A DNA stretch of 64,000 nucleotides from the NCBI GenBank assembly GCA_902790595.1, contig CADASL010000009.1:25229-89228 (forward strand), read 5' to 3'. Below the pieces are notes generated by a model that ran no database searches, was not told where the DNA came from, and saw nothing but the letters and a program-made list of their open reading frames with translations. Every line of letters starts with the position of its first letter. Within the stretch, counting starts at the first letter, position 1. Below, piece by piece: positions 1-14,767 of this stretch. This DNA is from an uncultured Bacteroidales bacterium. Lineage in GTDB: Bacteria > Bacteroidota > Bacteroidia > Bacteroidales > SZUA-534. The position numbers and the translations under genes are program-made.

Positions 1-1557
1 GGCGGCGCTTGGGCCATTATGGGCAGCTACAACCTTTATCAGAAACAGCACTGCTGCCACAACAAAACTCTGCTCTGCGACATTCTGAAGGGCGAATGGA
101 AGTTCGATGGCGTGGTCATCTCCGACTGGGGCGGCTGCCACAGCACCGACGAAGCCGTGCACAACGGTCTCGACCTTGAATTCGGCACCTGGACCGGCGG
201 AACAACCTGGGGACGCAGCAACTCATACGAGAGTTATTTCCTTGCCCGCCCATATCTTGAAGGCATCAAGAGCGGAAAATACACCACTGCCGAACTCGAT
301 GACAAAGCTCGCCGTGTTTTAAGACTGATTTTCCGCACAACAATGTCGGGACAGGCGAAATGGGGTTCACTCTGCTCTGACGAGCATTACGCCGCCGCAC
401 GCCAGATTGCCGGCGAAGGCATTGTCCTGCTCAAGAACGACCGCGCCATTCTGCCGATTGACGCAAGCAAGAAACCGAAAATTCTTGTTGTGGGCGAGAA
501 TGCCATTAAGATGATGACCATCGGCGGCGGCTCAACATCGCTCAAGGTTCAGCGCGAACTGTCACCGCTTGACGGATTGAAAAACCGCTTTGGCGCTGAT
601 AACGTGACGTATGCACGCGGCTACGTTGGCGACACTGTAACTTCGTTCGACGGCATTGAGACTGGCCAGAAACTTGCCGACCACCGCTCGGCGCAGGAAC
701 TGACCGACGAAGCCGTACAGATGGCAAAAAATGTTGATTTTGTGATATTTGTGGGCGGAATGAACAAGAGTGGCGGACAAGACTGCGAAGGCACCGACCG
801 CAAATCGCTCGAATTGCCTTATAATCAGAACAATGTGGTGAGCGAGATTTTGAAGGTGAATCAGAATCTGATTTTTGTGAACATCGCGGGCTCGCCTGTC
901 ACAATGCCGTGGCTTGGTCAGGTTCCTGCCGTTTTGCAGGCGTGGTACATCGGCTCTGAAGCCGGCAATGCCATTGCCGACGTGCTTGCAGGCGATGTGA
1001 ATCCTTCGGGCCGACTGCCGTTCTCATTCCCCGCCAAACTCGAAGATGTGGGTGCTCACGCTGTTGGCGAATACGTGAACAAGCCGAGTTTCAAGGTTGT
1101 CGATGTTGAGTACAAAGAAGACATTCTGGTTGGCTACCGCTGGCTCGACACCAAGAAAATCAAACCGTTGTTCGCTTTCGGCTATGGCTTGTCGTACACC
1201 ACTTTCAGCTACGGGAAACCGTCGATTAACAAAACCACAATGACCGCCGACGGCAGCGTAACTGTTAAAGTTGACGTCACTAATACCGGCAAACGCGCTG
1301 GCGCTGAAGTAGTTCAACTCTACATTGCCGACCTGAAATCGAGCCTGCCGCGTCCCGCCAAGGAACTGAAGGGATTCAAGAAAGTGCAACTCAATCCGGG
1401 CGAGACCAAGACTGTAGAGTTCACCATCGACAGCAGCGCTCTCTCGTTCTACAACGACGCTAAAAAGCAATGGGAAGCTGAGCCGGGCGCCTTCGAAGCC
1501 ATCATTGGCGCATCGGCAACCGACATTAAAGGGAAGGTGAAGTTTGAGCTGAAGTAG
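1..1557 (+). CDS. Glycoside hydrolase family 3 beta-glucosidase, C-terminal part (5' end upstream of window)
   Basis: The frame is open from nt 1 (track ORF 19..1557). It has the GH3 nucleophile context 'GVVISDWGG', a GH3 C-terminal domain and a fibronectin-III-like tail ('GYGLSYTTF', 'VQLYI...LKGFKKV'). A hairpin terminator follows. Confidence 0.85.
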   Translation, partial: GGAWAIMGSYNLYQKQHCCHNKTLLCDILKGEWKFDGVVISDWGGCHSTDEAVHNGLDLEFGTWTGGTTWGRSNSYESYFLARPYLEGIKSGKYTTAELDDKARRVLRLIFRTTMSGQAKWGSLCSDEHYAAARQIAGEGIVLLKNDRAILPIDASKKPKILVVGENAIKMMTIGGGSTSLKVQRELSPLDGLKNRFGADNVTYARGYVGDTVTSFDGIETGQKLADHRSAQELTDEAVQMAKNVDFVIFVGGMNKSGGQDCEGTDRKSLELPYNQNNVVSEILKVNQNLIFVNIAGSPVTMPWLGQVPAVLQAWYIGSEAGNAIADVLAGDVNPSGRLPFSFPAKLEDVGAHAVGEYVNKPSFKVVDVEYKEDILVGYRWLDTKKIKPLFAFGYGLSYTTFSYGKPSINKTTMTADGSVTVKVDVTNTGKRAGAEVVQLYIADLKSSLPRPAKELKGFKKVQLNPGETKTVEFTIDSSALSFYNDAKKQWEAEPGAFEAIIGASATDIKGKVKFELK

Positions 1558-1580
1558 CAGATTGATAACAAAATAGAAAA

Positions 1581-1614
1581 GCGGAACCGTTGTTGAGGCG
1601 GTTCCGTTTTTTTT
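1581..1614 (+). terminator. Intrinsic terminator after the GH3 gene
   Basis: Stem cggaacc (1582-1588) pairs with ggttccg (1600-1606), followed by a T8 run (1607-1614). Confidence 0.7.
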
Positions 1615-1676
1615 CGTTTATGAGGCATATTGGAAAATATCGACCAACAGCTTTTCAACGTTTAAGCAAAATCACT

Positions 1677-1684
1677 ATCTTCAC
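1677..1684 (+). promoter_or_regulatory. Candidate Bacteroidetes -7 box (TATCTTCA, near TAnnTTTG)
   Basis: It sits in 'aatcactatcttca', 40 nt upstream of ATG 1724. Nearly the same word 'aatcactatcttcg' recurs at 16759-16772 upstream of batD. Confidence 0.4.
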
Positions 1685-1723
1685 ATCGTTTGCAAATTAA
1701 TGTTTAACTAAAATTATTTTAAA

Positions 1724-1999
1724 ATGTCACCTACTGAAATCATCACACTCATTGTAGTCGGCGCGTTGGCCGGCTGGTTGGGCAGCCTGCTTTTCAAAGG
1801 AAAAGGTATGGGGCTGGTGGTAAACTTCATTGTCGGCATTGTCGGCTGTTTCTTTGGCGGCTGGCTGTTCGATGTATGCGACCTTAGCCTTAAACTGTTC
1901 AAGGGCGATTGGAAATGGCTGAACAACGTAATTATTGGCGCAATCGGCGCATTCATCATTCTTGTTGTTATCAACTTGGTTTTCAAGAAGAAAAAATAG
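1724..1999 (+). CDS. GlsB/YeaQ/YmgE family (transglycosylase-associated) small membrane protein
   Basis: 91 aa with Gly-rich TM helices 'IVVGALAGWLGSLLF', 'IVGIVGCFFGGWLF' and 'IIGAIGAFIILVV', typical of this family. Confidence 0.8.
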   Translation: MSPTEIITLIVVGALAGWLGSLLFKGKGMGLVVNFIVGIVGCFFGGWLFDVCDLSLKLFKGDWKWLNNVIIGAIGAFIILVVINLVFKKKK

Positions 2000-2016
2000 C
2001 AGGAACCAGATTCTGA

Positions 2017-2047
2017 AAAGGCCGGACTATCAGTTTGGCCTTTTTTT
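2017..2047 (+). terminator. Intrinsic terminator
   Basis: aaaggcc (2017-2023) pairs with ggccttt (2037-2043), with a T-run to 2047. Confidence 0.55.
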
Positions 2048-2188
2048 GACTTCGGACTTCAGACTTCGGACTTCGGACAACAGACAACGGACTTCAGACA
2101 ACGGACAACGACAACGAAACAAAGTCGTAATTCCTAATTCGTAATTCATAATTAAATAATACCCAACACCCAACACCTAATACCTACA
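2048..2188 (+). repeat. Three consecutive 7-nt-period degenerate tandem arrays
   Basis: Nine in-phase heptamers GAC(TT/AA)C(G/A) occupy 2048-2110, followed by a decayed copy 'acaacga' to 2117. CGTAATT-type heptamers (about 2124-2160) and ACCCAAC-type heptamers (2161-2188) follow. Confidence 0.9.
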
Positions 2189-2191
2189 TCA

Positions 2192-2866
2192 ATGACGATT
2201 ACCGACCAGCTGTTTGCCCTTCAAGATGTTGCCTTTGGCGATTTTCAGGCCAAGCTGATGCCGAACATCAGCCGCAATAATATAATTGGTGTGCGCACTC
2301 CGGCTCTGCGGGCGTTGGCACGAAAGATTGCCAAGACCGATGCCGCGCAAGAGTTCATCGGGCAACTGCCGCACCGGTATTTCGAAGAGAACAACCTGCA
2401 CGCGTTCATAGTGGCGCAAACATCTGATTTTGACGAAGCTATGCGCCAGACAGAGCTTTTTCTGCCTCACATCGACAATTGGGCCACCTGCGACCAGTTC
2501 ACGCCCGCGGCATTCAAAAAACACCCCGACGAGTTGTTGAAAGCCGTTAGACGATGGATTGAAAGCTCGCACACCTATACGGTTCGTTTTGCTATTAAAA
2601 TGCTGATGACCTTCTATTTAGACGACCTTTTCTGCAACGAATATCCACAAATGGTGGCCGCGGTCAAATCTGATGAGTATTACGTTAAAATGATGATTGC
2701 GTGGTATTTCGCCACAGCGTTGTCAAAACAATACGATGCCATTGTTGGTTACCTTACCGAACACCGGCTCGACGCCTGGTGTCACAACAAAACCATACAG
2801 AAAGCCGTTGAGAGCTACCGCATCAGTGATGAGCGAAAGGCGGAGCTCAAAAAAATGAAGATTTAG
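2192..2866 (+). CDS. DNA alkylation repair protein (AlkC/AlkD-like HEAT-repeat family)
   Basis: 224 aa. N-terminal 'FGDFQAKLMPNI...IIGVRTPALRALAR' and C-terminal 'MIAWYFA...' match the DNA alkylation repair enzyme family pattern. Confidence 0.75.
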   Translation: MTITDQLFALQDVAFGDFQAKLMPNISRNNIIGVRTPALRALARKIAKTDAAQEFIGQLPHRYFEENNLHAFIVAQTSDFDEAMRQTELFLPHIDNWATCDQFTPAAFKKHPDELLKAVRRWIESSHTYTVRFAIKMLMTFYLDDLFCNEYPQMVAAVKSDEYYVKMMIAWYFATALSKQYDAIVGYLTEHRLDAWCHNKTIQKAVESYRISDERKAELKKMKI

Positions 2867-2889
2867 GTGGGCGCACGTAAATGCTTGCA

Positions 2890-2916
2890 AGTGAAAAATA
2901 TACGCGATTTTTCACT
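2890..2916. terminator. Bidirectional hairpin between convergent genes
   Basis: A perfect 10-bp stem agtgaaaaat (2890-2899) / atttttcact (2907-2916) with a 7-nt loop. Confidence 0.5.
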
Positions 2917-2958
2917 GCACTTGTTATTAAATTAGCTTACTGGTACTTCTGCATTAAA

Positions 2959-3054
2959 TTAGCAGATAAATGATTCCCAAAGTACAATTCCGATAACTTC
3001 AGCAATGGTAATAGCCACCACAACTTTCCAAAATTCCCTGCGATTTTCTCCCAT
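2959..3054 (-). CDS. Possible 31-aa single-TM mini-protein (MGENRREFWKVVVAITIAEVIGIVLWESFIC)
   Basis: This is the inner ATG of track ORF 2959..3255. A consensus -7 box TAGTTTTG lies on the minus strand (plus coordinates 3096-3103) 42 nt upstream, and the 2890-2916 hairpin lies downstream. It is in an AT-rich gap. I recognise no homology. Confidence 0.25.
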   Translation of the reverse strand: MGENRREFWKVVVAITIAEVIGIVLWESFIC

Positions 3055-3295
3055 TTCTAAAATACTGTTAATGATTAGTTTATATTCCCCCAATACAAAA
3101 CTAATTGTATACTGCAATATACGTTTTTTTGATGATTCCTGCAATAAAAAACGATGATTAAATCGCTTTTTTTTCAGGAAAAGTTGAGCCCTTGGTTGTT
3201 TGTTACTTAATTGGTGCGATGGTTGTTCCGAATGTTCTTGTCTGTTGGAGCACAATTTTGCGTGTCAGTTAGGGAAGGAGGAGACGAAAGGCCGC

Positions 3296-4336
3296 TTATT
3301 TCCCCGAAAAATCGATTCCTGCCGAACGGCGCTGCCAGCGCTCTTTGGCGAATTTCTGCATATCAATCTGAGTGTCAGACTCGTCGGTGATTTCCATACC
3401 AAGCAGAGTCTCAACCACATCTTCCATTGTGGCAATGCCTTCCATACCGCCGTACTCGTCAATCACAAGGGCAAACTGTTGCTTGCGTGTAATCAGAATA
3501 TTGTAGAAATTGAAAATCGACGTGTTCTCGTAGCAGTTGATTATCGGGCGGCGTAAGTTTTTGAGTTTCACGTTCTTTTTTCCGTCGGCCAGATAGAGCA
3601 GAATGTCCGATTTCAGAACAAATCCGGTGATGTCGTCAATTGAATCCTTATAGACCGGAATTCGCGAGTATCGCAGATTCTCTTTGTTGCTGAAAAACCG
3701 CTCGAGTGTGGTGTTCTCGTTGGCGGCCACCACCACGGTGCGCGGCGTCATCACGCTCTTCACTTTTATCGACTTGAGTTTCACCAGGTTGTTGATGATT
3801 TTTCCTTCGCTCGACTCAAAAACACCTTCGCGCTCGCCGATGTTGGCCAGTGCCGCAATCTCTTCGCGGCTCACTGTTTGTCCGCGCCGGCGCGAGAACA
3901 GCTTGGTGAGCGATTCCGACACAATCACAATCGGGTAGATGATATATATCAGACACTGAATGATATACGCTATCGGAACGCACAATTCGCGCCAGTAGTT
4001 GGAGCCGATTGACTTTGGAATTATCTCCGAAAAGACCAGAATGAGCACCGTGAGTACGGCCGATGCCACGCCGAAATATTCGTTTCCAAACACGGCAACA
4101 GCCTGAGCCCCGACGCCAGCCGCGCCAAACGTGTTGGCAATGGTGTTGAGCGACAAAATTGCGGCTAGTGGCCGGTCGATGTTGCGTTTGAGTCGCACAA
4201 GAATGCGCCCGCCTCTGCTTTTGTGCGCAATCGACTCGGCGTAAGATATTGACGTTGAGAGAATTGTTGATTCTGATACCGAGCATAGAAACGATATCAG
4301 AATGGCTGAAAGAAAATAGATAAGTAGCAGAATCAT
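3296..4336 (-). CDS. CNNM/DUF21 transmembrane domain + CBS-pair protein (hemolysin/CorC-like family)
   Basis: 346 aa. The N-terminal 4-TM DUF21 region ('LAAILSLNTIANTFGAAG', 'SEIIPKSIG') is followed by a tandem CBS region ('VMTPRT...', 'SRIPVY...', 'ALVIDEYGGMEGIATMEDVVE'). Confidence 0.85.
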   Translation of the reverse strand: MILLLIYFLSAILISFLCSVSESTILSTSISYAESIAHKSRGGRILVRLKRNIDRPLAAILSLNTIANTFGAAGVGAQAVAVFGNEYFGVASAVLTVLILVFSEIIPKSIGSNYWRELCVPIAYIIQCLIYIIYPIVIVSESLTKLFSRRRGQTVSREEIAALANIGEREGVFESSEGKIINNLVKLKSIKVKSVMTPRTVVVAANENTTLERFFSNKENLRYSRIPVYKDSIDDITGFVLKSDILLYLADGKKNVKLKNLRRPIINCYENTSIFNFYNILITRKQQFALVIDEYGGMEGIATMEDVVETLLGMEITDESDTQIDMQKFAKERWQRRSAGIDFSGK

Positions 4337-4351
4337 CAGAGAAACAGATAA

Positions 4352-4750
4352 TTACAGCTTTTGAGTAGGCAGTTTCTTAAATTCAAAAGGAACCTTCACA
4401 ATTTGTTGATAATCATTGCCCAAATCCTGCATATCCTCGTCGGAATAGTACCATACGATGGTAACATTCACACCTTTATCGAACAGAGTTTCAAGTTGTT
4501 GCATAATTTGAAGCAGATATTTCGACGTACTGGTGTTGAAATATTCGAGTTCCATATGAAATTCGGTACTCTCGGCCGGATTATGAAGGTAATTGTCTAT
4601 CCACTTGATAATTGGCTCGTAAAAACGAATCGAATTTTCGAGAATTGAACGCCCCGCAATCCTAAACTGGCCAGTTTTGGCGTTGAAAATGACTGTAGGG
4701 CGGCTGGTGTTGCCGTCAATCTGGAGAACGGTAGCTGATATTGTATCCAT
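4352..4750 (-). CDS. DUF1987 (SiaC-like) domain protein
   Basis: Start taken at the inner ATG (MDTISATV...). 'FRIAGRSILENSIRFYEPIIKWIDNY' and 'MELEYFNTSTSKYLLQIM' are characteristic of DUF1987. It ends 15 nt upstream of the CNNM gene, so the two are probably co-transcribed. Confidence 0.7.
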   Translation of the reverse strand: MDTISATVLQIDGNTSRPTVIFNAKTGQFRIAGRSILENSIRFYEPIIKWIDNYLHNPAESTEFHMELEYFNTSTSKYLLQIMQQLETLFDKGVNVTIVWYYSDEDMQDLGNDYQQIVKVPFEFKKLPTQKL

Positions 4751-4909
4751 ACAACAAATTTTGAGCAAAAGTATTTAAATATTGTAACAATACAAACGTT
4801 TGCATAATTATGATTACGGAAAAATTATCGAATTGTTTCAAAGGATTTGTGTGTCAGGCAAAATTTTCAAAAAAAATACTGCCTAAATACAATTATCCGT
4901 CAAGTTGCA

Positions 4910-4917
4910 TATATTTG
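4910..4917 (+). promoter_or_regulatory. -7 box TATATTTG (TAnnTTTG consensus)
   Basis: An exact consensus match 30 nt upstream of ATG 4947. Confidence 0.5.
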
Positions 4918-4946
4918 GCTACAATTTTTAGTAAAAATATAAACAA

Positions 4947-5591
4947 ATGAAACACAATATTTTATTTGCTGCATTTGCAGTAACAATGCTTACTGCGTGT
5001 GGTGGCAACGAGCAAATCCGCGTGGCTTGTGTAGGCGACAGCATCACCGAAGGCCACGGCATCAAAATCCAAAGCCGCGATGACTATCCTGTGGTGCTGA
5101 ACCGCATTTTGGGCGACGGCTACAGCGTGCAGAACTGCGGAAAAAGCGGCACTACGGTGCAAAAAGATGCCGATTATCCGTACTGGATTTGCAAGGAATT
5201 CTCGAACGCCGTGGCGCTCAACGCCGACATTGTGGTCATCAAACTTGGCACCAACGATACCAAACCGCAGAACTGGAATGCCGAGCGTTTCAAAACTGAT
5301 TACCAGTTGCTTATCGACACACTGAAAACGAACGGGCGCAATCCGCAGATTTTTGTCTGCACACCCGCACCCGCCTTCAGTCACGGCTGGGGCATCAACG
5401 ACTCGGTGATTGTGGCGGGCGTGATTCCGGCCGTGACCGAAATTGCCAAAGCAAACAATCTGACAATCATTGATTTGCACAAGGCTTTCGCCGACAAGCA
5501 GGAATACTTCAAGGTTGACGGCATCCATCCCGACGAAGCCGGTGCGGCGTTTATGGCCGAAATAATCGCGAAAGCAATAAAAAAAGACTAA
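4947..5591 (+). CDS. SGNH/GDSL hydrolase lipoprotein (acetylesterase-like)
   Basis: Lipobox 'MLTAC'. SGNH blocks 'VACVGDSITEG', 'GKSGTT', 'KLGTND' and 'DGIHPD'. Confidence 0.85.
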   Translation: MKHNILFAAFAVTMLTACGGNEQIRVACVGDSITEGHGIKIQSRDDYPVVLNRILGDGYSVQNCGKSGTTVQKDADYPYWICKEFSNAVALNADIVVIKLGTNDTKPQNWNAERFKTDYQLLIDTLKTNGRNPQIFVCTPAPAFSHGWGINDSVIVAGVIPAVTEIAKANNLTIIDLHKAFADKQEYFKVDGIHPDEAGAAFMAEIIAKAIKKD

Positions 5592-5608
5592 CTTAAAATA
5601 ATAACACG

Positions 5609-6565
5609 ATGAAAACCACTATTTTATCAGCAATGGCAGCCATCTGCCTGACAGCCGCTACACAAACGGCAAACGCGCAGTTCCCCGGACAACCCGCACC
5701 GAAGGAACCGCAAAAAATCATCGACCTTTGGAATGGCAAAATTCCGGGCGCGAAAAATGTTGACGCAAGCAAACTCGACGAAGTAAGTACCAAATCTTTC
5801 TTTGCGAGAGATATTAAGGTGCCGTCGATAGCCTACTATCCTGCCGACGAGAACCCGACAGGCACAGCAGTTGTTGTCTGCCCCGGCGGCAGCTATGCAG
5901 GTCTGTCGTACGCTTTTGAAGGCGTCAACCAAGCAGCCTGGCTCAACTCTATCGGCATTTCGGCCTTTGTTTTGCGCTATCGTATGCCAAAAGATGAGTT
6001 TATGGAAAAACGCTGCGACGGTCCGCTGCAGGACGCTCAGCAGGCTATTCGCTACGTACGCAGCCACGCCGCTGAGTACGGTATCAACCCTGACCACATC
6101 GGCATTGTGGGCTTCTCGGCCGGCGGACATCTGGCTTCAACGGCATCGACTCACTTCAACGACGAAGTGTACAAACCGGCTGAAAATGTGAGCGCAAGAC
6201 CCGATTTTGCAGTGCTCGTCTACCCTGTCATCACAATGGAACCGAGCTACAGCGAAAAAGGCACGCGCGAGTCTCTTATCGGCCCCGACGCTGACCAAGC
6301 TTTAATTGACCGCTTCTCGAGCGAGAAACAAGTTACCAAAGAAACACCGACGACATTCCTGGCTCACGCTATGAACGACAAACTGGTGCCTTACACAAAC
6401 AGCGTCAATTACGCCAACGCTTTGCGCGAAAAGGGTGTTGAGTGCGAGCTGCACCTTTATGCCCGCGGCGACCACGGTCTTGGCGCAAGAAATCCGATTG
6501 AAACTCAAGCCTTCTGGCACGACGCCTGCGAGAAATGGCTGCGTATGAACGGATGGGTGAAGTAA
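5609..6565 (+). CDS. Secreted alpha/beta hydrolase (esterase/lipase fold)
   Basis: Signal peptide. Oxyanion-type 'VVCPGGSYAG', nucleophile elbow 'GFSAGGHLA', and a C-terminal 'GDHG' His block. Confidence 0.8.
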   Translation: MKTTILSAMAAICLTAATQTANAQFPGQPAPKEPQKIIDLWNGKIPGAKNVDASKLDEVSTKSFFARDIKVPSIAYYPADENPTGTAVVVCPGGSYAGLSYAFEGVNQAAWLNSIGISAFVLRYRMPKDEFMEKRCDGPLQDAQQAIRYVRSHAAEYGINPDHIGIVGFSAGGHLASTASTHFNDEVYKPAENVSARPDFAVLVYPVITMEPSYSEKGTRESLIGPDADQALIDRFSSEKQVTKETPTTFLAHAMNDKLVPYTNSVNYANALREKGVECELHLYARGDHGLGARNPIETQAFWHDACEKWLRMNGWVK

Positions 6566-6600
6566 TTTAGGATTTAGAAGTTTGGATTTAGAAAGTTGGA
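6566..6600 (+). repeat. 7-nt-period array (tttagga|tttagaa|gtttgga|tttagaa|agttgga)
   Basis: It starts at the first base after the stop codon. The phase was read directly from the sequence. Confidence 0.85.
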
Positions 6601-6606
6601 GGACAA

Positions 6607-6632
6607 TGTAGGGACGTGGCGTTCCGCGTCCG
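6607..6632 (+). repeat. TGTAGGGACG-type stem-loop (family copy 1)
   Basis: In tgtagggacgtggcgttccgcgtccg, the stem ggacgtgg (6612-6619) pairs with ccgcgtcc (6624-6631). There is one T-G pair and the loop is cgtt. Confidence 0.7.
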
Positions 6633-6661
6633 TCAGTTAGTTTTAGAATTATACAGAAGAG

Positions 6662-6692
6662 GCCGGAAGATTATTGATTTTCCGGCTTTTTT
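6662..6692 (+). terminator. Intrinsic terminator
   Basis: gccggaa (6662-6668) pairs with ttccggc (6680-6686), followed by T6. Confidence 0.7.
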
Positions 6693-6819
6693 GTTTTCAG
6701 ATGGCGGCGATGCGCTTGGAGCAATATCGCTTTACGGGCTCATAACTAATGACTATCGCGGTTCAAAAAATCCCCATTTTTGATGATTCTCATAATAAAT
6801 TGGTATCACATATTTAAAA

Positions 6820-6827
6820 TACATTTG
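6820..6827 (+). promoter_or_regulatory. -7 box TACATTTG
   Basis: An exact TAnnTTTG match 21 nt upstream of the feoAB ATG at 6848. Confidence 0.5.
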
Positions 6828-6847
6828 CGCCCGAAATTGAGAAAGGT

Positions 6848-9340
6848 ATGGAAGAGCAGGTTTATAACAAAAAACGCCTGTCGGAACTGACCGACAGCAA
6901 TCCGGCAATCATCACCAAAGTGCTCGGACACGGCGCTTTCCGCAAACGAATCACCGAAATGGGATTTGTGTCGGGCACCAGCATCAGGCTGATAAAATAT
7001 GCGCCGCTGAAGGACCCGATTGAATATGAGTTGCTTGGCTACCACGTTTCGCTGCGGCGAAGCGAGGCCGAGCTGATTGAAGTGGTTACCGACCCGAACG
7101 CGGCAACCAACCAAGGCGATAATTTTGATAAGGATGCCCTCATCTCGGAGCCGTTCCGCAAGCGCGCAACGCAGATGAGCCACACCATCAACATCGCCCT
7201 TGTGGGAAACCCCAACTGCGGCAAGACATCGCTCTTCAACCACGCCACTGGCCGCCACGAGAAGGTTGGCAACTACAGCGGCGTGACCGTTGACACCAAA
7301 ATGGCCAGCGTCACGCACAAAGGCTACACCATCAACATCACCGACCTACCCGGAACTTACTCAATATCAGAATATACGCCGGAGGAACTATATGTCCGCA
7401 AGCACATTTTTGAGGAGAACCCCGACATCATTCTGAACGTCATCGACGCATCGAACCTTGAGCGCAACCTTTACCTCACCACGCAACTTATCGCGATGAA
7501 TATCAGGATGGTAGTGGCATTGAATATGTTCGATGAACTGGAGCGTAAGGGCGACCGCCTCGACTACGATATGCTTGGCAAGATGCTCGGCATTCCGTTT
7601 GTGCCAACCAACGGCCGCGATGGCGCTGGTCTTAACACCTTGTTCGACAGAATTATAGAGGTGTTTGAGGAACGCGATGCCGATGCCCGCCAGATTCAGG
7701 TTAACTATGGCAGCAATGTTGAGAAAGCTATCGGCGTGGTGAAATCGGAAATTGAACAGCATCAGCTACTTAACGAGAAATATTGTCCTCGTTTTGCGGC
7801 CATCAAACTGATTGAAGGCGACAAGATTTTCATCAAGAACATTGCCGCTCACCCCGACGCCAACCATATTATTGAGTGGGCCGACAAGGAGCGCGCCGAA
7901 CTTGAGCGCGAGTATGGCAATCAGGCCGAAACGGTGCTTGCCGATGCTCGTTACGGCTTCATCCGCGGCGCATTGAAAGAGACCTTCCTGCCATCGCAGC
8001 AACCCGACAACGGCAAAGGCTACAAGGTGGATAAAATTCTGACACATAAATGGTTGGGCATTCCCGCATTCATCTTTTTTATGTGGCTGATGTTCCAAGC
8101 TACATTCACCCTTGGCCAGTATCCGATGGACTGGATTGAGGCTGGTGTTGATTGGCTTGGCGAGTTTATGGCCGGGCTCATACCTGAGGGCACTCTTCAC
8201 GATTTGATTATCGACGGCATCATCAGTGGTGTTGGCGGAGTCATCGTTTTTCTGCCTAACATATTGATTTTGTTTCTGTTCATATCCATTATGGAAGATA
8301 CCGGCTATATGGCTCGGGCGGCGTTCATTATGGATGTGGCGATGCATAAAATCGGGCTTCACGGCAAGTCGTTCATTCCTTTGCTGATGGGTTTTGGTTG
8401 CAATGTGCCTGCCATTATGGCCACTCGCACGCTCGAGAACAAGAAAGACCGTCTGCTCACAATGCTCATTGTGCCGCTGATGTCGTGCAGCGCGCGGCTT
8501 CCGGTATTCATTCTTCTCATTTCGGCATTTTTCAGCACGCATCAGGCGCTCATTCTGCTGTCGATATATATTATTGGTATCGCCCTTGCGGTGATAGCCG
8601 CGATGGTGTTCAAACGGCTGTTTTTCAGCCATAGCGAGGCTCCGTTTGTGATGGAGCTGCCGCCCTACCGCATCCCGACTTTGCGTAACACGCTGATTCA
8701 TATGTGGGATAAGAGCTGGCAATATCTGCACAAGATGGGAACGGTGATTCTGCTTGCGTCAATTATCATATGGGCGCTCGGGCACTTCCCGCAGAAAGTG
8801 CACTATTCAACGCCTTATGATGTGGTTATTGCCCAAGTTGAACAAGACACCACTCTGACCGACAGTCAGAAAGCCGTCAGCATCAGTCAGTTGGAAAGTG
8901 AGCGCGAAGCCGAGCATCTTGAGAAATCGTACATCGGGCGCCTTGGGCACTTCATCGAGCCAGTCATCCGTCCGCTGGGCTTCGACTGGAAAATTGGCGT
9001 GTGCATAATGACCGGACTTGCAGCTAAAGAGGTGGTTGTGAGCACAATGGGCGTGCTTTATCAAGCCGGTGACACCGATGATGACACCGCCGCCCTTCAA
9101 ACCAAACTGCAACAGCAAACCTACAAGAGCGGTCCGCACAAGGGCGAGAAAGTGTTCAGCCCGCTGGTGGCTTTCGGTATGATGATTTTCGTTCTCATCT
9201 ATATGCCGTGCATTGCGGCCATAACCGCCATCAAAAAGGAGGGCGGCCGCAAGTGGGCCATACTCACGGGCTGCTACACAACTGCGCTTGCCTGGCTTAT
9301 GGCGTTTGCCGTGTTCCAAATCGGAAGTTTGTTTATTTAG
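6848..9340 (+). CDS. feoB: Ferrous iron transporter FeoB with N-terminal FeoA domain (FeoAB fusion)
   Basis: 830 aa. It has a FeoA SH3-like N-terminus, the G-domain motifs 'GNPNCGKTSLFN' and 'DLPG', and the polytopic FeoB gate regions. Confidence 0.95.
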   Translation: MEEQVYNKKRLSELTDSNPAIITKVLGHGAFRKRITEMGFVSGTSIRLIKYAPLKDPIEYELLGYHVSLRRSEAELIEVVTDPNAATNQGDNFDKDALISEPFRKRATQMSHTINIALVGNPNCGKTSLFNHATGRHEKVGNYSGVTVDTKMASVTHKGYTINITDLPGTYSISEYTPEELYVRKHIFEENPDIILNVIDASNLERNLYLTTQLIAMNIRMVVALNMFDELERKGDRLDYDMLGKMLGIPFVPTNGRDGAGLNTLFDRIIEVFEERDADARQIQVNYGSNVEKAIGVVKSEIEQHQLLNEKYCPRFAAIKLIEGDKIFIKNIAAHPDANHIIEWADKERAELEREYGNQAETVLADARYGFIRGALKETFLPSQQPDNGKGYKVDKILTHKWLGIPAFIFFMWLMFQATFTLGQYPMDWIEAGVDWLGEFMAGLIPEGTLHDLIIDGIISGVGGVIVFLPNILILFLFISIMEDTGYMARAAFIMDVAMHKIGLHGKSFIPLLMGFGCNVPAIMATRTLENKKDRLLTMLIVPLMSCSARLPVFILLISAFFSTHQALILLSIYIIGIALAVIAAMVFKRLFFSHSEAPFVMELPPYRIPTLRNTLIHMWDKSWQYLHKMGTVILLASIIIWALGHFPQKVHYSTPYDVVIAQVEQDTTLTDSQKAVSISQLESEREAEHLEKSYIGRLGHFIEPVIRPLGFDWKIGVCIMTGLAAKEVVVSTMGVLYQAGDTDDDTAALQTKLQQQTYKSGPHKGEKVFSPLVAFGMMIFVLIYMPCIAAITAIKKEGGRKWAILTGCYTTALAWLMAFAVFQIGSLFI

Positions 9341-9492
9341 GATTTAGAATGTAGGAATTAGGATTTGAACGCTTATTTTTTGACTACAAACATCGGACAA
9401 GAATTGAGTAATGATTAATGTGTAAAGTGTAATGATTCGTAACCCGTAATTCATAATTCAAAATCCTAACTTCTAACTTCTAACTCCTAAAT
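9335..9492 (+). repeat. Heptamer tract whose two ends are 32-nt imperfect inverted repeats
   Basis: Left arm 9335-9366 is atttaggatttagaatgtaggaattaggattt. The reverse complement of 9461-9492 is atttaggagttagaagttagaagttaggattt. About 27/32 positions match. Between the arms lie GTAAnnn and CTAAC-type heptamers. Confidence 0.85.
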
Positions 9493-9496
9493 ATCA

Positions 9497-9655
9497 ATGG
9501 TTCAGGAAATAATAACTTGGTTGATTGTTGCCGCGGCAGTCGTTTGGATTGTGAAACGCATCTATGACCGCACACGCGGCGGAGGCTGCGATTGCGGCTG
9601 CGGTTGTGGAAGTGGGAGTGAAGGTTGCAATTGCGGTTGCGACGGATGTCGGTAA
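9497..9655 (+). CDS. FeoB-associated Cys-rich membrane protein (52 aa, below ORF-track cutoff)
   Basis: My translation is MVQEIITWLIVAAAVVWIVKRIYDRTRGGGCDCGCGCGSGSEGCNCGCDGCR*. It has one TM helix and a (C-x)n tail, lies directly downstream of feoB, and is followed by a terminator. Confidence 0.8.
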   Translation: MVQEIITWLIVAAAVVWIVKRIYDRTRGGGCDCGCGCGSGSEGCNCGCDGCR

Positions 9656-9700
9656 GAGACACAGTTTCTGAGAGTTGGTGGATTCGACTCGACATTCAAA

Positions 9701-9739
9701 GGCCGGAAATCATTTCGATATGGTTCCGGCCTTTTTTTT
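9701..9739 (+). terminator. Intrinsic terminator ending the feo unit
   Basis: ggccggaa (9701-9708) pairs with ttccggcc (9724-9731), followed by T8. Confidence 0.8.
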
Positions 9740-9765
9740 GTTTGCAAAGCCGCATCCGCCCAAAA

Positions 9766-9802
9766 CGTTAACAAAACGTTAAACCCCGTTAATTTTTGTT
9801 AA
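9766..9802 (+). promoter_or_regulatory. Four helically phased (C/T)GTTAA repeats upstream of the bat operon
   Basis: cgttaa occurs at 9766, 9777 and 9787, and tgttaa at 9797 (spacing 11, 10, 10 nt). The array lies 90-126 nt upstream of ATG 9892. Confidence 0.4.
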
Positions 9803-9891
9803 TAGGTGTCAGCCCTATCAAATGTTTTATCAAATTTGCGCCGTTGAGTTGAAAAAATAATAAGAAACCGAAAACATATAAAACAATAATT

Positions 9892-10887
9892 ATGAGCGAA
9901 ATTGTTGATATCAAAGAACTTAATGACCGCATACAACGCGAAAGTTCGTTTGTCGACCTAATCACTATGGAGATGAACAAGGTGATTGTGGGTCAAAAGC
10001 ATTTGACTGAATGTCTGCTGATTGGCTTGCTGTCCGATGGGCACATTCTTCTTGAGGGCCTTCCAGGATTGGCCAAGACATTGGCAATTAACACGTTGGC
10101 GCAGACAATCAATGCTGGGTTCAGCCGAATCCAGTTCACACCCGATTTGCTGCCTGCCGACGTCATTGGAACAATGATTTACAGCCCCAAAACCGAGGAG
10201 TTCAGCGTCAAGAAGGGCCCGATTTTCACCAACTTCGTGCTGGCCGATGAGATTAACCGTGCCCCCGCAAAGGTTCAGAGCGCACTGCTCGAGGCGATGC
10301 AGGAGAAGCAGGTCACCATTGGCGACACCACTTTCCAACTCGAAAAGCCGTTCCTGGTGATGGCCACACAAAACCCCATTGAGCAAGAGGGAACCTATCC
10401 GCTGCCCGAGGCGCAGATGGACCGTTTTATGCTCAAGGTGATTATCGGCTACCCGAAGAAGGAAGAAGAGCAACTCATTGTGCGTCAGAACATTCAGCGC
10501 ACCTTCCCGAAGGCCAACAAGATTCTCTCGACCGACGAGATTGTCAAGGCGCGCGAAGTTGTGAAAGACGTCTATATGGACGAGAAAATCGAACGTTATA
10601 TTGTTGATATTGTGTTCGCTACACGTTACCCCGACGAGTACAAACTCGAATATCTGAAAGAGATGATTGGCTTTGGCGGTTCGCCGCGTGCCAGCATTAG
10701 TCTGTCGAAAGCCGCAAAAGCCTACGCGTTCATTAAACGCCGCGGCTACGTGGTGCCCGAGGATGTGCGCGCCGTCTGCCACGATGTTCTGCGCCACCGT
10801 ATCGGTTTGACGTATCAGGCTGAAGCCGAAAACATTACAACCGAAGACATTATCAACGAGATATTGAATAAGGTGGAAGTACCTTAA
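9892..10887 (+). CDS. MoxR-family AAA+ ATPase (first gene of the Bat/aerotolerance cluster)
   Basis: 331 aa. Walker A-like 'GLPGLAKT', Walker B 'LADEINRA', and 'MATQNPIEQEGTYPLPEAQMDRF'. Confidence 0.9.
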   Translation: MSEIVDIKELNDRIQRESSFVDLITMEMNKVIVGQKHLTECLLIGLLSDGHILLEGLPGLAKTLAINTLAQTINAGFSRIQFTPDLLPADVIGTMIYSPKTEEFSVKKGPIFTNFVLADEINRAPAKVQSALLEAMQEKQVTIGDTTFQLEKPFLVMATQNPIEQEGTYPLPEAQMDRFMLKVIIGYPKKEEEQLIVRQNIQRTFPKANKILSTDEIVKAREVVKDVYMDEKIERYIVDIVFATRYPDEYKLEYLKEMIGFGGSPRASISLSKAAKAYAFIKRRGYVVPEDVRAVCHDVLRHRIGLTYQAEAENITTEDIINEILNKVEVP

Positions 10888-10999
10888 TTAGGTGTTAGGC
10901 ATTAGAAATTTTAAATTACGAATTATGAATTACGAGTTACGAAATCGGAATTGAACAATTGGAATTCGTAATTCGGCATTCGGAATTAAAGATTAAAAC
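10888..10999 (+). repeat. 16 consecutive in-phase heptamers (consensus TTAnGAA)
   Basis: ttaggtg|ttaggca|ttagaaa|ttttaaa|ttacgaa|ttatgaa|ttacgag|ttacgaa|atcggaa|ttgaaca|attggaa|ttcgtaa|ttcggca|ttcggaa|ttaaaga|ttaaaac. The array begins at the base after the moxR stop. Confidence 0.9.
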
Positions 11000-11028
11000 C
11001 CAATACCACTCTGAAAATCAATCAATAA

Positions 11029-11904
11029 TTGGTTATGGAGACTTCGGAATTATTAAAAAAGGTACGGCACATTGAGATTAAGACACGCGGGCTGTCGAAC
11101 CAGATTTTTGCGGGCGAGTATCACAGCGCCTTCAAAGGTAAAGGTATGACATTCAGCGAGGTGCGCGAGTACAACTACGGCGATGCCATTCGCGACATTG
11201 ACTGGAACGTGACGGCGCGGCTCAACCACCCGTTTGTCAAGGTTTTTGAGGAGGAGCGCGAACTGACCGTGATGCTGCTGATTGATGTCAGCGGCTCGAA
11301 AAACTTCGGTACGCGCAGCCAGTACAAACTCGACCTGATGACCGAAATCGCCGCCGTGCTCTCGTTTTCGGCCATTAAGAACAACGATAAGATTGGCGTA
11401 ATAATGTTCAGCGACAAGGTGGAGAAGTTCATTCCGCCGCAGAAAGGCCGCAAGCACATTCTGCGCATTATCCAGGAACTGCTCAACTTTGAGCCGCAGA
11501 GCCGCCAGACCAATGTGGCAGCGGCTTTGGAGTACCTGACCAGCGCCATTAAGAAACGCTGCATTGCGTTTGTCATTTCCGACTTTATCGATGAGCGTTT
11601 CAACGACGCGCTCACCATTGCCAACCGCAAGCACGACCTTGTGGCTCTGCGCATTTACGACCAACGCGAGACCGAAATGCCGTCGATTGGACTTGTGCAG
11701 ATGACCGATGCCGAAACGGGCGCCACGCAATGGGTTGACACGTCGAGCCGCGCCGTGCGCGAGGCCTACAGCCATTGGTGGACGTCGCTCTCGCTCAACG
11801 TCGAGTCGGCGTTCAAGCGTAGCGGAGTTGATTTCGCAACCATTGCCACTGGCGACGACTACGTGAAGCCGCTTATCGGACTGTTCAAGCACCGAAGCGT
11901 GTGA
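11029..11904 (+). CDS. DUF58 domain protein (MoxR partner, VWA-like)
   Basis: 291 aa. 'SAFKGKGMTFSEVREYNYGDAIRDIDWNVTAR' is the DUF58 signature. Confidence 0.85.
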   Translation: MVMETSELLKKVRHIEIKTRGLSNQIFAGEYHSAFKGKGMTFSEVREYNYGDAIRDIDWNVTARLNHPFVKVFEEERELTVMLLIDVSGSKNFGTRSQYKLDLMTEIAAVLSFSAIKNNDKIGVIMFSDKVEKFIPPQKGRKHILRIIQELLNFEPQSRQTNVAAALEYLTSAIKKRCIAFVISDFIDERFNDALTIANRKHDLVALRIYDQRETEMPSIGLVQMTDAETGATQWVDTSSRAVREAYSHWWTSLSLNVESAFKRSGVDFATIATGDDYVKPLIGLFKHRSV

Positions 11905-11993
11905 GATTTAGGAGTTAGGAATTAGAATTTAGGAGTTAGTCAATGTATAGAATATGGTGTTGGGTGTTGGTAAGGATGCGATTTATCGCGTCC
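11905..11993 (+). repeat. Heptamer tract (nnnTTAG x5 etc.) ending in a GGATGCGA/TCGCGTCC stem-loop (family copy 2)
   Basis: gatttag|gagttag|gaattag|aatttag|gagttag|... The stem is 11974-11981 / 11986-11993 with loop ttta. Confidence 0.8.
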
Positions 11994-12172
11994 GCCCCCG
12001 ATAACAATCGAAACACCTGTTAAACAATTAAAAATTAACAATTAAAAATGAAGGCAGATGAACATAGTTCGGATTGAATCTGATAAAATCGGTTAGAGAT
12101 ATAAATCAGTGTTAATCAGTGTATTCTGTGTTATCTGTGCGAGAATCAAAAATCGAAAATCACAATTCAAAA

Positions 12173-13174
12173 ATGTCTAAATATCTGACAATATTGGTAA
12201 TGGCGATGATGCTGGCGCTGGGTGAAGCCCACGCGCAAGTGAGTGTTTCGGCCAAAATCGACACGTCGATGATGCTCATTGGCGACCAGACCAATTTCCG
12301 CATTGAGGCTTCGTTTCCAGACGGTTACAAGGTGATGCTGCCTGTTATGGCCGACACCGTGTCGCGCGGACTCGAGATTGTTGAGGCTGGAACGGTCGAT
12401 TCTGTGCTGGCCGACGGTATTGTCCGCATAAGCCAAAAATATGTGGTCACCAACTTCGACAGCGGCTGGTACGCAGTGCGCCAACTGCCGTTCGCTATTC
12501 TCGACCCAAGCGGCAACACCGACACAATCTATTCAGAACAAGTGTATTACGGCGTGATGACAATGCCGCTCGACACGGCAAACGCCAACGCAATCTGCCC
12601 GCCGAAACCGATGGCGGAGGCGCCGTTCAAAATCAGCGAACTGGTGCCATATGTGAAATGGGCGATGCTTGCGCTGCTTGTGGCGGCCATTGTGGCGCTT
12701 TTAGTCTATGTGCTTGTCAAGCGCAAACGCAACGAGCCGATTTTCGCCAAACCCAAACCGCAGGAGCCTGCGCACGTTATCGCTCTGCGCCAATTGGACG
12801 AACTCAAGGAGCAAAAACTCTGGCAGCGCGGGCTGGTGAAGGAGTTCTACTCGTCGCTCACCGACATTGTGCGCGTCTATCTGAACGGCCGATTCGGCGT
12901 GCAGGCGATGGAGAGCACCACGGCCGAGATTATGCAGATGACGAAGAACGTGCCCGAAATCGACAAAGACCTGCGCAGCAACTTGCAAGACCTGCTCGAG
13001 CGGGCCGATTTTGTGAAATTCGCGAAAGCGCAGGCCGAGGCCAACGAGAACGAGGCAAGTTTCGCCTTTGTTGAGCATTTCGTGCTGACAACCAAGCCTG
13101 TAGAGCAACTTCGCGACGATGAAGACGCGCCCGAAGGCGAGGCCAAAGTCGAACAAAACGAAAAAACGGAGTAG
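12173..13174 (+). CDS. Bat-cluster membrane protein (signal peptide, one TM, acidic tail); third ORF of the cluster
   Basis: Start taken at the inner ATG (MSKYLTILVMAMMLALGEAHAQ). The TM is 'WAMLALLVAAIVALLVYVLV'. Its position between DUF58 and batA matches the described Bacteroides bat cluster. I do not recognise the family name. Confidence 0.6.
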   Translation: MSKYLTILVMAMMLALGEAHAQVSVSAKIDTSMMLIGDQTNFRIEASFPDGYKVMLPVMADTVSRGLEIVEAGTVDSVLADGIVRISQKYVVTNFDSGWYAVRQLPFAILDPSGNTDTIYSEQVYYGVMTMPLDTANANAICPPKPMAEAPFKISELVPYVKWAMLALLVAAIVALLVYVLVKRKRNEPIFAKPKPQEPAHVIALRQLDELKEQKLWQRGLVKEFYSSLTDIVRVYLNGRFGVQAMESTTAEIMQMTKNVPEIDKDLRSNLQDLLERADFVKFAKAQAEANENEASFAFVEHFVLTTKPVEQLRDDEDAPEGEAKVEQNEKTE

Positions 13175-13177
13175 ACT

Positions 13178-14173: not shown

Positions 14174-14325
14174 GGAAATGTAAAATTGAAAATGAAAAAT
14201 TAAAAATGATAGGTTGTTGAGATAGTTGAGAAGGTTTAGAAAGTTGAGTAAGTTTATGCTAAACAGCGAAGCGCTCAACATTCTCAACCGCGAAGCACTA
14301 AACTTAAAACTTCAGAACATAAGCA
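14174..14325 (+). repeat. Short-period tract (7- and 9-nt units) containing copy 1 (14280-14318) of a 39-bp direct repeat
   Basis: gaaaatg|aaaaatt|aaaaatg, then ttgagatag|ttgagaagg|tttagaaag|ttgagtaag. 'attctcaaccgcgaagcactaaacttaaaacttcagaac' recurs at 14715-14753. Confidence 0.85.
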
Positions 14326-14703: not shown

Positions 14704-14714
14704 AAAATGCCATT

Positions 14715-14753
14715 ATTCTCAACCGCGAAGCACTAAACTTAAAACTTCAGAAC
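14715..14753 (+). repeat. Copy 2 of the 39-bp direct repeat flanking the inserted ORF
   Basis: Identical to 14280-14318. Confidence 0.9.
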
Positions 14754-14767
14754 TTAAAACTTTAAAA

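Follow-up and report, generated by a model that had tools for sequence, protein, structure and literature searches.

A 64,000-nt stretch of DNA from an uncultured Bacteroidales bacterium (GCA_902790595.1, contig CADASL010000009.1, positions 25,229 to 89,228; called the window below) raises the question of why the spacers between its genes should consist of runs of a degenerate 7-nt word, and whether such heptad arrays serve the operons in which they lie. Our analysis confirmed that the spacers are really built of period-7 tandem arrays and that the signal is statistically strong. In the 43 spacers of the window (8,473 nt), delimited on a simple open reading frame (ORF) map corrected by gene calls and Rfam, lag-7 identity was 0.310, compared with 0.2706 +/- 0.0044 in shuffled controls (z=9.1), with further autocorrelation peaks at lag 14 (z=4.4) and lag 21 (z=4.7). 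Coding DNA gave a lag-7 identity of 0.248 and no peak at this lag, only the usual 3-nt periodicity. The comparison of spacers with shuffles and coding DNA that had been proposed along with the original observation came out in its favor within the window.

Heptad arrays in intra-operon spacers

The same picture emerged from Tandem Repeats Finder (TRF; score cut-off of at least 30), which was run on 37 window spacers and on thirty dinucleotide-preserving shuffles of them. It reported 23 period-7 rows against a mean of 0.40 rows in the shuffles (maximum 3), and 13 of the 37 spacers bore an array, against 0.4 in the shuffles; periods 8, 9 and 10 accounted for 3, 4 and 3 rows. Sixteen of the 19 intervals originally named as degenerate heptad spacers are supported, TRF finding 14 of the named intervals at period 7 (or 14/21), 36213-36352 at period 8 and 19598-19747 as a short period-9 row, while 27032-27130 and 55173-55221 are weak and stay below the TRF threshold. 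That the arrays 'fill' the spacers was an overstatement for the long ones: by a hand sum of TRF coordinates, arrays account for ~16% of spacer DNA overall and for ~39% in the spacers that bear them. Their reported position near stop codons stands, with array starts falling -6 to +10 nt from the stop and several arrays reaching 0-6 nt from the next start. Word families also recur between distant spacers as had been noted, 152 11-mers being common to different window spacers compared with 21 in shuffles, and the families TTAGGAG, GGTGTTG, AATTACG, AATCAAA and CTAAACT occur in 2-5 spacers each. The families TTAGGAG/CTCCTAA, GGTGTTG/CAACACC and AATTACG/CGTAATT take their G-form after stops and their C-form before starts. 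The arrays are not assembly artefacts, because independently assembled genomes of the species contain them, as do isolates of other Bacteroidota. The proposed search of Rfam (release 15) brought no spacer match: RNase P was the sole gathering-level match in the window, nothing matched a spacer at E<=1 within window positions 1500-20000, and the moxR/DUF58 spacers of 7 other loci had no match either.

The spread and location of the arrays were followed in 80 Bacteroidota loci (1.54 Mb) taken from species-representative genomes with moxR. Intergenic tandem repeats in this set were dominated by period 7 (192 rows), followed by period 14 (71 rows), with 59, 51, 53 and 9 rows for periods 8, 9, 10 and 6, respectively, and 192 of the 261 period-7 rows were intergenic. 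Not only metagenome-assembled genomes but also isolates (Flavobacterium, Prevotella, Labilibaculum and Saccharicrinis) carry arrays; the genomes nearest to the window, which carries the Bacteroidota bat operon, are metagenome-assembled Bacteroidales and Salinivirgaceae. The arrays had been assigned to intra-operon junctions, and their density bears this out, with 1.03 arrays per kb in co-directional spacers, 0.21 in convergent and 0.11 in divergent ones (co-directional versus divergent p=2e-8). The density reaches 2.22/kb within the bat operon; outside it, the co-directional and divergent values are 0.50 and 0.12/kb (p=0.0015), and overall co-directional spacers are 4-9 times denser in arrays than divergent ones. 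The arrays survive almost solely where transcribed but untranslated DNA separates co-directional genes. In the window the junctions concerned lie in the bat, leu and aro/phe/tyr gene strings, as assigned by Pfam, and the ordinary terminators expected elsewhere are present at 1575, 28297, 42351 and 46515 (minus strand), and by eye at 9698. Promoters were represented by the TAnnTTTG -7 motif, a sigma-70 scan being uninformative for Bacteroidota: the nine array spacers of the window lack the motif and the ten motif-bearing spacers lack arrays. Five of the seven bat junctions are long in the window's species, whose genome is of rumen type, compared with one or two in most genomes, and this species is at the array-rich end of Bacteroidota.

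The behavior of the arrays between close relatives was seen in six strain contigs with an identical moxR protein (L001-L006, from GCA_017526035.1 and five ENA metagenome assemblies). Contig L006 is 100% identical to the window and the others are 92-97% identical to it in genes (aligned blocks), with alignments between strains interrupted precisely at the spacers. As simple sequence repeats the arrays are hypervariable, gaining and losing whole units by slipped-strand mispairing and turning over much faster than the flanking genes, because the strains either differ by whole units (GGTGTTA by +7 or +14 nt, five TTAGGAT units by +35 nt, CCGATTAA by 8 nt, two copies of a 10-mer by 20 nt) or have entire spacers replaced. 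Some spacers have been swapped whole, from stop codon to start codon, for unrelated sequence that is again made of heptads. The moxR/DUF58 spacer of L002 and L004 is such an unrelated replacement, which also folds (z=-2.49), with a stem that starts at the first base after the stop.

Polarity, arm pairing and the moxR/DUF58 junction

The composition of the arrays depends on which end of the spacer they occupy. In the mRNA sense, arrays lying within 20 nt of a stop are C-free in 38 cases and G-free in 2, and those within 20 nt of a start are G-free in 12 cases and C-free in 1. The G-C skew of array spacers is +0.21 after the stop and -0.12 before the start, compared with -0.04 and -0.05 in array-free spacers; since the latter show no skew, it is a property of the arrays and not of the positions, and a general trait of post-stop and pre-start DNA is ruled out. 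An artefact of gene calling was also rejected as the source of the polarity, too few arrays (4) overlapping called 3' ends; 12 arrays of mixed composition lie at 5' ends as called, no more than 40 nt from the start. Because of the small number at called 3' ends and the mixed ones at 5' ends, the rule is robust near stops and somewhat weaker near starts. The suggestion that the arrays are frame-independent stop buffers fails, a stop being found in 27 of 35 post-stop units where permutation of their letters predicts 25.9.

Post-stop and pre-start arrays are often reverse complements of each other, such that the spacer folds as one long imperfect hairpin. When the first and last 40 nt of 323 co-directional spacers were paired with ends from the same or from different spacers, cognate ends paired much better over the whole set, above all in spacers with at least two arrays, where they reached -17.0 kcal/mol compared with -8.2 kcal/mol for non-cognate ends (p=5e-4), an advantage that persisted when only array-bearing controls were used (p=0.0035). 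The idea that the arrays are unstructured pads accordingly holds for the G-free pre-start arrays only; many others are arms of a long hairpin. The stems carry no regular mismatch every 7 nt, there being no lag-7 autocorrelation of unpaired positions and only unremarkable helix runs. These hairpins were also considered as intrinsic terminators and rejected: they are A/U-rich and followed by A-rich leaders, as opposed to a G+C-rich hairpin with a U-tract, and the real terminators lie elsewhere.

This architecture is best seen at the junction between moxR and the DUF58 gene, where the spacer is at least 45 nt long in 86% of 79 loci (median 83 nt), compared with medians of -1 to 25 nt at the other six bat junctions. 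Folding of 64 such spacers gave a mean z of -2.73, with 59% of them below -2 and 44% below -3, and twelve that were folded against 200 shuffles each gave z-scores of -3.4 to -7.7. For the 38 spacers with z<-2, the median distance from the stop to the outermost stem is 2 nt (0-6 nt in 36 of the 38), and that from the end of the stem to the start codon is 9 nt. Stems at moxR/DUF58 take up 84% of the spacer, compared with 57% in 140 other co-directional spacers used as controls (p=1e-8), and only 4 of the 64 spacers look like terminators, against 21% of the controls. The spacer sequences are unrelated between lineages and some stems are made without heptads; hence conservation concerns the stop-to-start hairpin itself, for which heptad arrays are the most frequent building material.

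A metagenome scan seeded with the moxR gene of marine Flavobacteriaceae provided a replication set of 80 loci with 58 distinct spacers of 45-200 nt. Their mean z was -2.91 (50% below -3) and their span 0.82, with stems running from 3 nt after the stop to 10-11 nt before the start. Over both sets, the junction measures at least 45 nt in 84-86% of loci, and the G-first order was replicated in the metagenomes in 48 spacers versus 9 (p=7e-7). Selection was assessed on nine alignable homologous spacers of the marine Flavobacteriaceae clade, in which 10 of 40 paired columns vary compared with 23 of 31 unpaired ones (p=4.5e-5). This avoidance of paired columns argues for purifying selection on the arms, in a form that does not separate pairing from a repeated protein-binding motif.

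Kinship with known repeats and a candidate role

The arrays had not been assigned to any described repeat class. They show the defining features of heptanucleotide long simple sequence repeats (LSSR), namely the predominance of 7-nt units, occurrence above chance, a mostly non-coding location and whole-unit polymorphism. Heptamers are the commonest of the 5-11-nt units in this class, as far as the work of Mrazek et al. (2007) is relayed in PMC4679880 and PMC4692102, and no detailed study of heptanucleotide repeats was available as of 2015 (PMC4692102). Like the arrays, the LSSR GGGAATC of Xanthomonas and GGGGATT of Nostoc lie mostly between genes and differ in length among close relatives, and they include inverted array pairs and an intra-operon site, pecE-pecF (PMC4692102, PMC4679880). 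The named LSSR are G-rich, however, and have been proposed to form G-quadruplexes, whereas the window arrays use three letters, being C-free or G-free, and pair with one another. The short tandemly repeated repetitive (STRR) sequences of filamentous (heterocystous) cyanobacteria resemble the arrays in being 7-bp tandem intergenic units with several families per genome, which form hairpins inside operons such as hupS-hupL; a role in transcript stability or translational coupling has been proposed for these hairpins (PMC2670836). The window units differ from them in being A/T-rich and very degenerate, with a change of family every 3-5 copies, and for STRR we found no account of a G-first polarity or of a stop-to-start geometry. 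Because the host phylum is also different, Bacteroidota here, the arrays resemble STRR but are not STRR in the strict sense.

The TAACTGA repeats of Beggiatoaceae, cyanobacteria and five Bacteroidetes (MacGregor, 2015) are likewise intergenic heptamers lying a few nt before starts in a fixed orientation, and a translational role has been proposed for them; other heptamers were noted in Gramella and Aequorivita (PMC4679880). This family has a single unit sequence, and no paired-arm or hairpin architecture has been described for it; as an identity for the arrays it was rejected, no match to TAACTGATAACTGA being found with up to 2 mismatches. A different parallel is offered by the coupling of phage f1 genes VII and IX and of the MS2 coat and lysis genes, in which the terminating ribosome opens a hairpin by the downstream start (PMC12548453). 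In geometry the array hairpins would suit such coupling by RNA unfolding: the stem opens at a median of 2-3 nt from the stop, and its far side lies 9-11 nt short of the start. The last ~10 nt and the AUG, however, are left free. The phage cases have short or negative gene spacing and a Shine-Dalgarno sequence, whereas array spacers are ~80-150 nt long with no Shine-Dalgarno and their coupling is only predicted. Repetitive extragenic palindromes and bacterial interspersed mosaic elements (REP/BIME) and enterobacterial repetitive intergenic consensus (ERIC) sequences are also imperfect hairpins in transcribed intergenic DNA, often within operons. Such palindromes affect mRNA stability; they are multi-copy families of conserved sequence, whereas in the arrays only period and architecture recur. 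The non-coding 7-nt repeat of Haemophilus influenzae hmw1A/hmw2A, whose copy number grades expression and which has an RNase III-targeted 5' untranslated region (5'-UTR; PMC8262952 and PMC12721329), is one perfect tract in the promoter/5'-UTR of a surface-protein gene, whereas the arrays are many, degenerate and placed between housekeeping cistrons. The literature covered is incomplete; in it, we found no description of heptads as a general spacer feature of Bacteroidota, of the G-first rule or of the moxR/DUF58 hairpin.

It is possible, though with somewhat less than an even chance, that the arrays have a cis-acting translational role, as an intercistronic RNA device for non-Shine-Dalgarno ribosomes that combines a masked landing pad with translational coupling. 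The ribosomes of Bacteroidetes do without Shine-Dalgarno pairing. Initiation there depends on an unstructured region from -20 to +20, on upstream adenines and on a depletion of AUG from -21 to -1, and the 30S subunit has been proposed to bind open RNA and then diffuse to the start (PMC6847099). The hairpin would act on the polycistronic mRNA, read by ribosomes that ignore Shine-Dalgarno sites, and its G-free arm would be the landing pad, directly before the true start codon and, its pairing with the C-free arm aside, with little structure of its own. A G-free array would be ideal for this purpose because it is free of AUG, GUG and UUG and can pair with itself only by A-U, and the complement of such an array is necessarily C-free. 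The C-free arm would mask the pad until the ribosome terminating upstream melts the stem base: on reaching the stop, with the base 2 nt downstream, this ribosome would have to open the first ~10 bp of the stem and so free the part of the 3' arm nearest to the next start. The result would be RNA-unfolding coupling or a hand-over of ribosomes, spread over ~100 nt by looping out the spacer. The folded, C-poor-first layout may in addition shield a ~100-nt untranslated stretch from Rho and nucleases. Rho prefers C-rich, G-poor RNA, and with the G-first order the arm made first would be a poor substrate while the C-containing arm would be paired as soon as it is made. Slippage would supply the building material, allowing arm length, and hence the expression ratio, to drift or be tuned. 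The broader proposition, that the hairpins, assembled from inverted heptads with the C-free arm leading and the G-free arm following, form a phylum-wide stop-to-start class, conserved in structure but not in sequence, which hands ribosomes over ~100 nt by coupling or shunt-like transfer, with heptad slippage tuning subunit ratios, is in our opinion unlikely, though worth stating.

A number of observations weigh against this translational role. The last ~10 nt before the AUG and the AUG itself are usually unpaired, so that masking would be partial. A spacer-spanning hairpin would also be expected from the insertion of a palindrome into a short ancestral spacer, and the control co-directional spacers are themselves structured (mean z -2.03). 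The moxR/DUF58 spacers fold about equally well in sense and antisense (-21.4 versus -20.7 kcal/mol, p=0.18, with similar z-scores), and the G-first order is unchanged by reverse complementation; polarity alone therefore does not identify the relevant strand, and the two facts together do not prove a constraint at the RNA level over one at the DNA level. Two-sided pair changes were absent from the nine-spacer alignment, where the one-sided changes were mostly from A-U to G-U, and two 3-sequence alignments in which covariation was also sought left the total at almost none; only the contrast between paired and unpaired columns was informative. In convergent spacers the polarity is mixed, with ~3-4 cases for and 2 against. 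Within the window, spacer 9341-9496 has an outer stem that pairs array to array and a whole-spacer fold of only z -1.3, which is not significant, and the arrays at 2048-2188, 14704-67, 29964-30031 and 34047-137 have no partner arm and are predicted to be unstructured. The 2048-2117 array, which contains both G and C, does not fit the model.

Some of these facts are what would be expected if the arrays were a neutral by-product, with slippage favoring 7-nt units, and arrays and their template-switch inverted copies gathering where they do no harm, at intra-operon junctions free of promoters and terminators. Whole-unit copy-number polymorphism and wholesale turnover between close strains point this way, as do the avoidance of spacers with promoter motifs, the equal folding of both strands, the existence of arrays such as 2048-2117 that are neither polar nor paired, and the excess of heptamers in many unrelated phyla, which has been attributed to polymerase slippage (PMC4679880, PMC4692102). 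Slippage alone, however, leaves the complementarity of the arms and the G-rich-arm-first order unexplained, and a neutral origin sits poorly with the strength and array-specificity of the polarity, with a moxR/DUF58 junction that is long throughout the phylum while its neighbors are short, and with the conservation of paired columns; we consider it less probable than a translational role, but a serious contender. Slightly less probable still, and likewise a rival to be taken seriously, is that the hairpins serve RNase III processing or mRNA stability, the intercistronic duplex being cut or blocking 3' exonucleases and so uncoupling the stability of moxR mRNA from that of bat mRNA, by analogy with the intervening sequence (IVS) stem-loops of 23S rRNA and with REP/ERIC. 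The stems, at 20-40 bp, carry no U-tract and lie within operons, which would suit such a role, and it is consistent with the transcript stability proposed for STRR hairpins (PMC2670836), with the combination of a heptamer repeat and an RNase III-targeted 5'-UTR element in H. influenzae (PMC12721329), and with the PF05635 ORF found in one hairpin and the PDDEXK_3 ORF inside the leuC-leuD inverted repeat, both described below. It would account neither for the G-first polarity nor for a stem base that abuts both stop and start.

The exchange of whole spacers between strains exactly from stop to start, the presence of heptamer words in both orientations in different spacers, the existence of ORF-bearing versions and the three copies of a REP-like hairpin, GTAGGGAYG...CGTCC, would agree with small mobile palindromes of the miniature inverted-repeat transposable element (MITE), REP or IVS type, sometimes carrying a small ORF, of which the arrays would be the terminal inverted repeats. 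We regard this as improbable: the 64 kb and the strain loci contain no near-identical full-length copies, only short words and one 38-nt duplication, no transposase or target-site duplication was noticed in the window, and the sequences at the same position are unrelated between genomes. More improbable still is a set of multivalent protein-binding sites, in which the arrays would be bound as single-stranded RNA by an OB-fold protein (~7 nt per domain), for example bS1, cold-shock proteins or another regulator. A constant period with varying sequence and G-free, A-rich leaders directly upstream of starts could be read in this way; bS1, Csp and CsrA have been proposed as binders of TAACTGA repeats (PMC4679880), and bS1 has been suggested to read positions -12 to -15 in Bacteroidetes (PMC6847099). 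Dozens of unrelated units nevertheless argue against a sequence-specific binder, many arrays are base-paired and not single-stranded, and post-stop arrays would have no explanation.

Intergenic heptanucleotide repeats have been known since about 1990, as STRR, and were by 2007 the commonest bacterial long simple sequence repeats, without a demonstrated function. The polarity rule, the complementarity of the arms and one junction, moxR/DUF58, with a phylum-wide architecture now provide a handle on them, in a phylum that includes tractable species with ribosome-profiling data (Flavobacterium johnsoniae, PMC6847099). If the hairpins control translation or mRNA fate, they would explain how cistrons are coordinated across long gaps without Shine-Dalgarno sequences and would change how operon spacers of gut and rumen Bacteroidota are annotated and engineered; should the ribosome hand-over be true, it would be the first demonstrated function of heptanucleotide repeats. 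Even if neutral, the arrays would be strain-typing markers and a frequent cause of alignment breaks in metagenome-assembled genomes.

Individual arrays and neighboring features

The individual arrays are described here in window coordinates, on the plus strand and as detected by TRF unless stated otherwise. The array at 2048-2117 (TRF 2048-2116) consists of ~10 in-phase GACTTCG/GACAACG heptamers directly 3' of a terminator hairpin at 2019-2047, and is kept with small changes in strain L005. It is followed at 2124-2188 by four CGTAATT units and a G-free leader of four ACCCAAC/ACCTAAT units (TRF 2125-2186, as TAATTCN and ACCCAAC), which stops 3 nt short of the ATG at 2192, has 0 G in its last 42 nt and shows a +7 nt indel (AACACAT) in L005. 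The post-stop array of five TTTAGGA/TTTAGAA units at 6565-6600 is C-free (1 C in 42 nt), precedes a REP-like hairpin (6608-6631) and a terminator, and in L005 is expanded by five TTAGGAT units (35 nt). The spacer that separates feoB from a small FeoB-associated ORF (9335-9492) shows in-phase heptads by TRF and in a register print, with a C-free arm (9335-9366) pairing with a G-free array of 3.6 CTAACTT units (9466-9490).

In the moxR/DUF58 spacer (10888-11034), the 16 in-phase units originally counted at 10888-10999 are reflected in a lag-7 identity of 0.56 over the whole spacer; four AATTACG units (10914-10943) pair with four AATTCGN units (10957-10987) in a hairpin at 10891-11007, whose minimum free energy (MFE) of -33 kcal/mol (z=-3.34) was matched by 0 of 200 shuffles. 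The next spacer, between the DUF58 gene and a gene of 333 aa (11905-12172), holds several arrays: 4.6 copies of TTAGGAG (11908-11939), two of GGTGTTG (11956-11970, polymorphic), a hairpin at 11975-11996, two copies of AACAATTAAAAATT (12020-12049), units of 9-10 nt (12104-12139) and a G-poor AATCAAA leader (12140-12172). The +7, +14 and +20 nt indels that separate strains here coincide exactly with units. Downstream of batA, 14174-14325 combines AAAATGA/AAAATTA heptads and 9-mers (GTTGAGAAA) with a complementary G-poor arm in a hairpin at ~14207-14314 (z=-2.3), and its sequence is wholly different in the other four strains. The G-poor AAACTTA leader before batB (14704-14767; TRF 14735-14766) holds a 38-nt direct copy of 14280-14320 and has 31 11-mers in common with the 14174 spacer. 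Between the last two spacers lies a 125-aa ORF (14326-14703) with a lipoprotein-like N-terminus and no Pfam match, which is present in the window strain only and absent from L001, L002, L004 and L005; the 38-nt copy that follows it repeats the leader that precedes it. A mobile cassette was considered for this ORF and rejected, an exact-protein look-up matching the same contig only and the flanks not being complementary. The TPR (batC-like) gene contains CAG/CAA-rich repeats of 15-30 nt at 16320-16479, encoding a Gln/Asn-rich tail, with an 18-nt in-frame indel in L005.

Further along, 16623-16806 contains a post-stop C-free GTTATAA/GTTGAAA array (16630-61), and, by TRF and pattern match, a REP-like hairpin (16697-16721) with 3.5 copies of CCGATTAA (16720-47), one 8-nt unit of which forms an indel in L004. 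The spacer 18679-18832 has four C-free AAAGTTT units after the stop (18681-18708) and a pattern-matched REP-like hairpin (18760-18782), and folds with z=-3.5. The three copies of the REP-like hairpin are found in array-bearing spacers only, where 0 are expected by chance. The hairpin GGATGCGATTTATCGCGTCC at ~11975-11996 resembles them, and in strain loci similar copies adjoin GGTGTTG arrays. The convergent spacer 19598-19747 has weak 7/9-nt periodicity (identity 0.36 at lag 7, 0.38 at lag 9) and no significant fold, its right half being C-free in the sense of the minus-strand gene. Another convergent spacer, of 49 nt (55173-55221), contains weak heptads (lag-7 identity 0.45) and is C-free in the plus sense. 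In strain L004, the convergent spacer L004:1967-2174 carries two very long arrays with at least 10 copies each, ~14 of GAGAGGT (102 nt) and ~11 of GTTTAGA (80 nt). Either array is C-free when read in the direction of the gene that precedes it, and they are not mutually complementary.

In the aromatic amino acid gene string, the G-poor leader of eight AATCAAA units before tyrA (34047-34137; 1 G in the last 42 nt) has an MFE of -4 kcal/mol. The spacer between tyrA and the DAHP-synthase gene (34981-35126) is formed by a C-free AGAGTAA arm and a G-free CATTACT arm, which pair in a hairpin at ~34989-35106 (z=-3.6). Before aroB (36204-36352) the arrays have a period of 8, AATAATTG being C-free after the stop and CTAAACTT G-free before the start (0 C in the first and 0 G in the last 42 nt), and the fold is not significant. 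The C-free post-stop array at 52148-52178 (4.4 copies of TTAGGAG/TTAGAAT) has 11-mers in common with the spacers at 11905 and 9341.

After leuA, 4.7 copies of AATTACG (29964-30031) form the leader of an LRR gene, with 4-5 copies in the window and 2 in strains L088 and L094. This array belongs to a strain-variable cassette hot spot (29964-31794, compared in strain loci L088-L094), which is empty in L089 and L093 and carries in other strains LRR_5 genes of 297-1148 aa, an MNT/HepT toxin-antitoxin pair or DUF3791/DUF3990 genes, each gene retaining its own leader regardless of its upstream neighbor. Between leuC and leuD, a gene of the PF13366 / PDDEXK_3 PD-(D/E)XK nuclease family (27131-27532) is present in all 7 of the strain contigs examined (L088-L094). 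A 32-nt inverted repeat (27099-27130 / 27540-27571; -33.6 kcal/mol, z=-4.1, 0 of 300 shuffles) brackets it exactly, which places this ORF in the loop of a hairpin between two genes. A comparable case was seen at a marine Flavobacteriaceae locus, whose 306-nt moxR/DUF58 spacer (L152:2194-2499) has complementary heptad arms (z=-2.9) and, in the hairpin loop, a 66-aa ORF of the 23S rRNA intervening-sequence protein family (23S_rRNA_IVP, PF05635, E=3e-21); a 267-nt spacer at locus L171 contains a 68-aa ORF with no family assigned. The suggestion that the arrays are landing pads for cassettes is borne out in anecdotal form only, by the small ORFs in two hairpins and the variable site downstream of leuA.

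The most structured spacer of the window (49700-49938) has no heptads: it precedes a Cache/SpoIIE sensor-phosphatase gene, forms an imperfect palindrome of ~200 nt (MFE -67.5 kcal/mol, z=-7.4) and could be a MITE or a regulatory RNA. The RNase P RNA is of bacterial class A (24430-24805, minus strand, 199.9 bits), and because it occupies this position, a 138-aa ORF on the opposite strand (24424-24840) is spurious. The longest ORF called for prephenate dehydratase (32686-33549) contains a strong terminator-like hairpin with a T-run (32694-32723), and the gene probably starts further downstream than 32686. A Flavo-1 RNA (RF01705, 54.9 bits), unrelated to the spacers studied here, was found at a Flavobacterium algoritolerans locus (L052:2167-2251, minus strand). 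Finally, a ~1.1 kb region of 50% G+C without a long ORF (60092-61180), with minus-strand fragments of 84 and 141 aa beside a 392-aa ORF, may be a disrupted gene.

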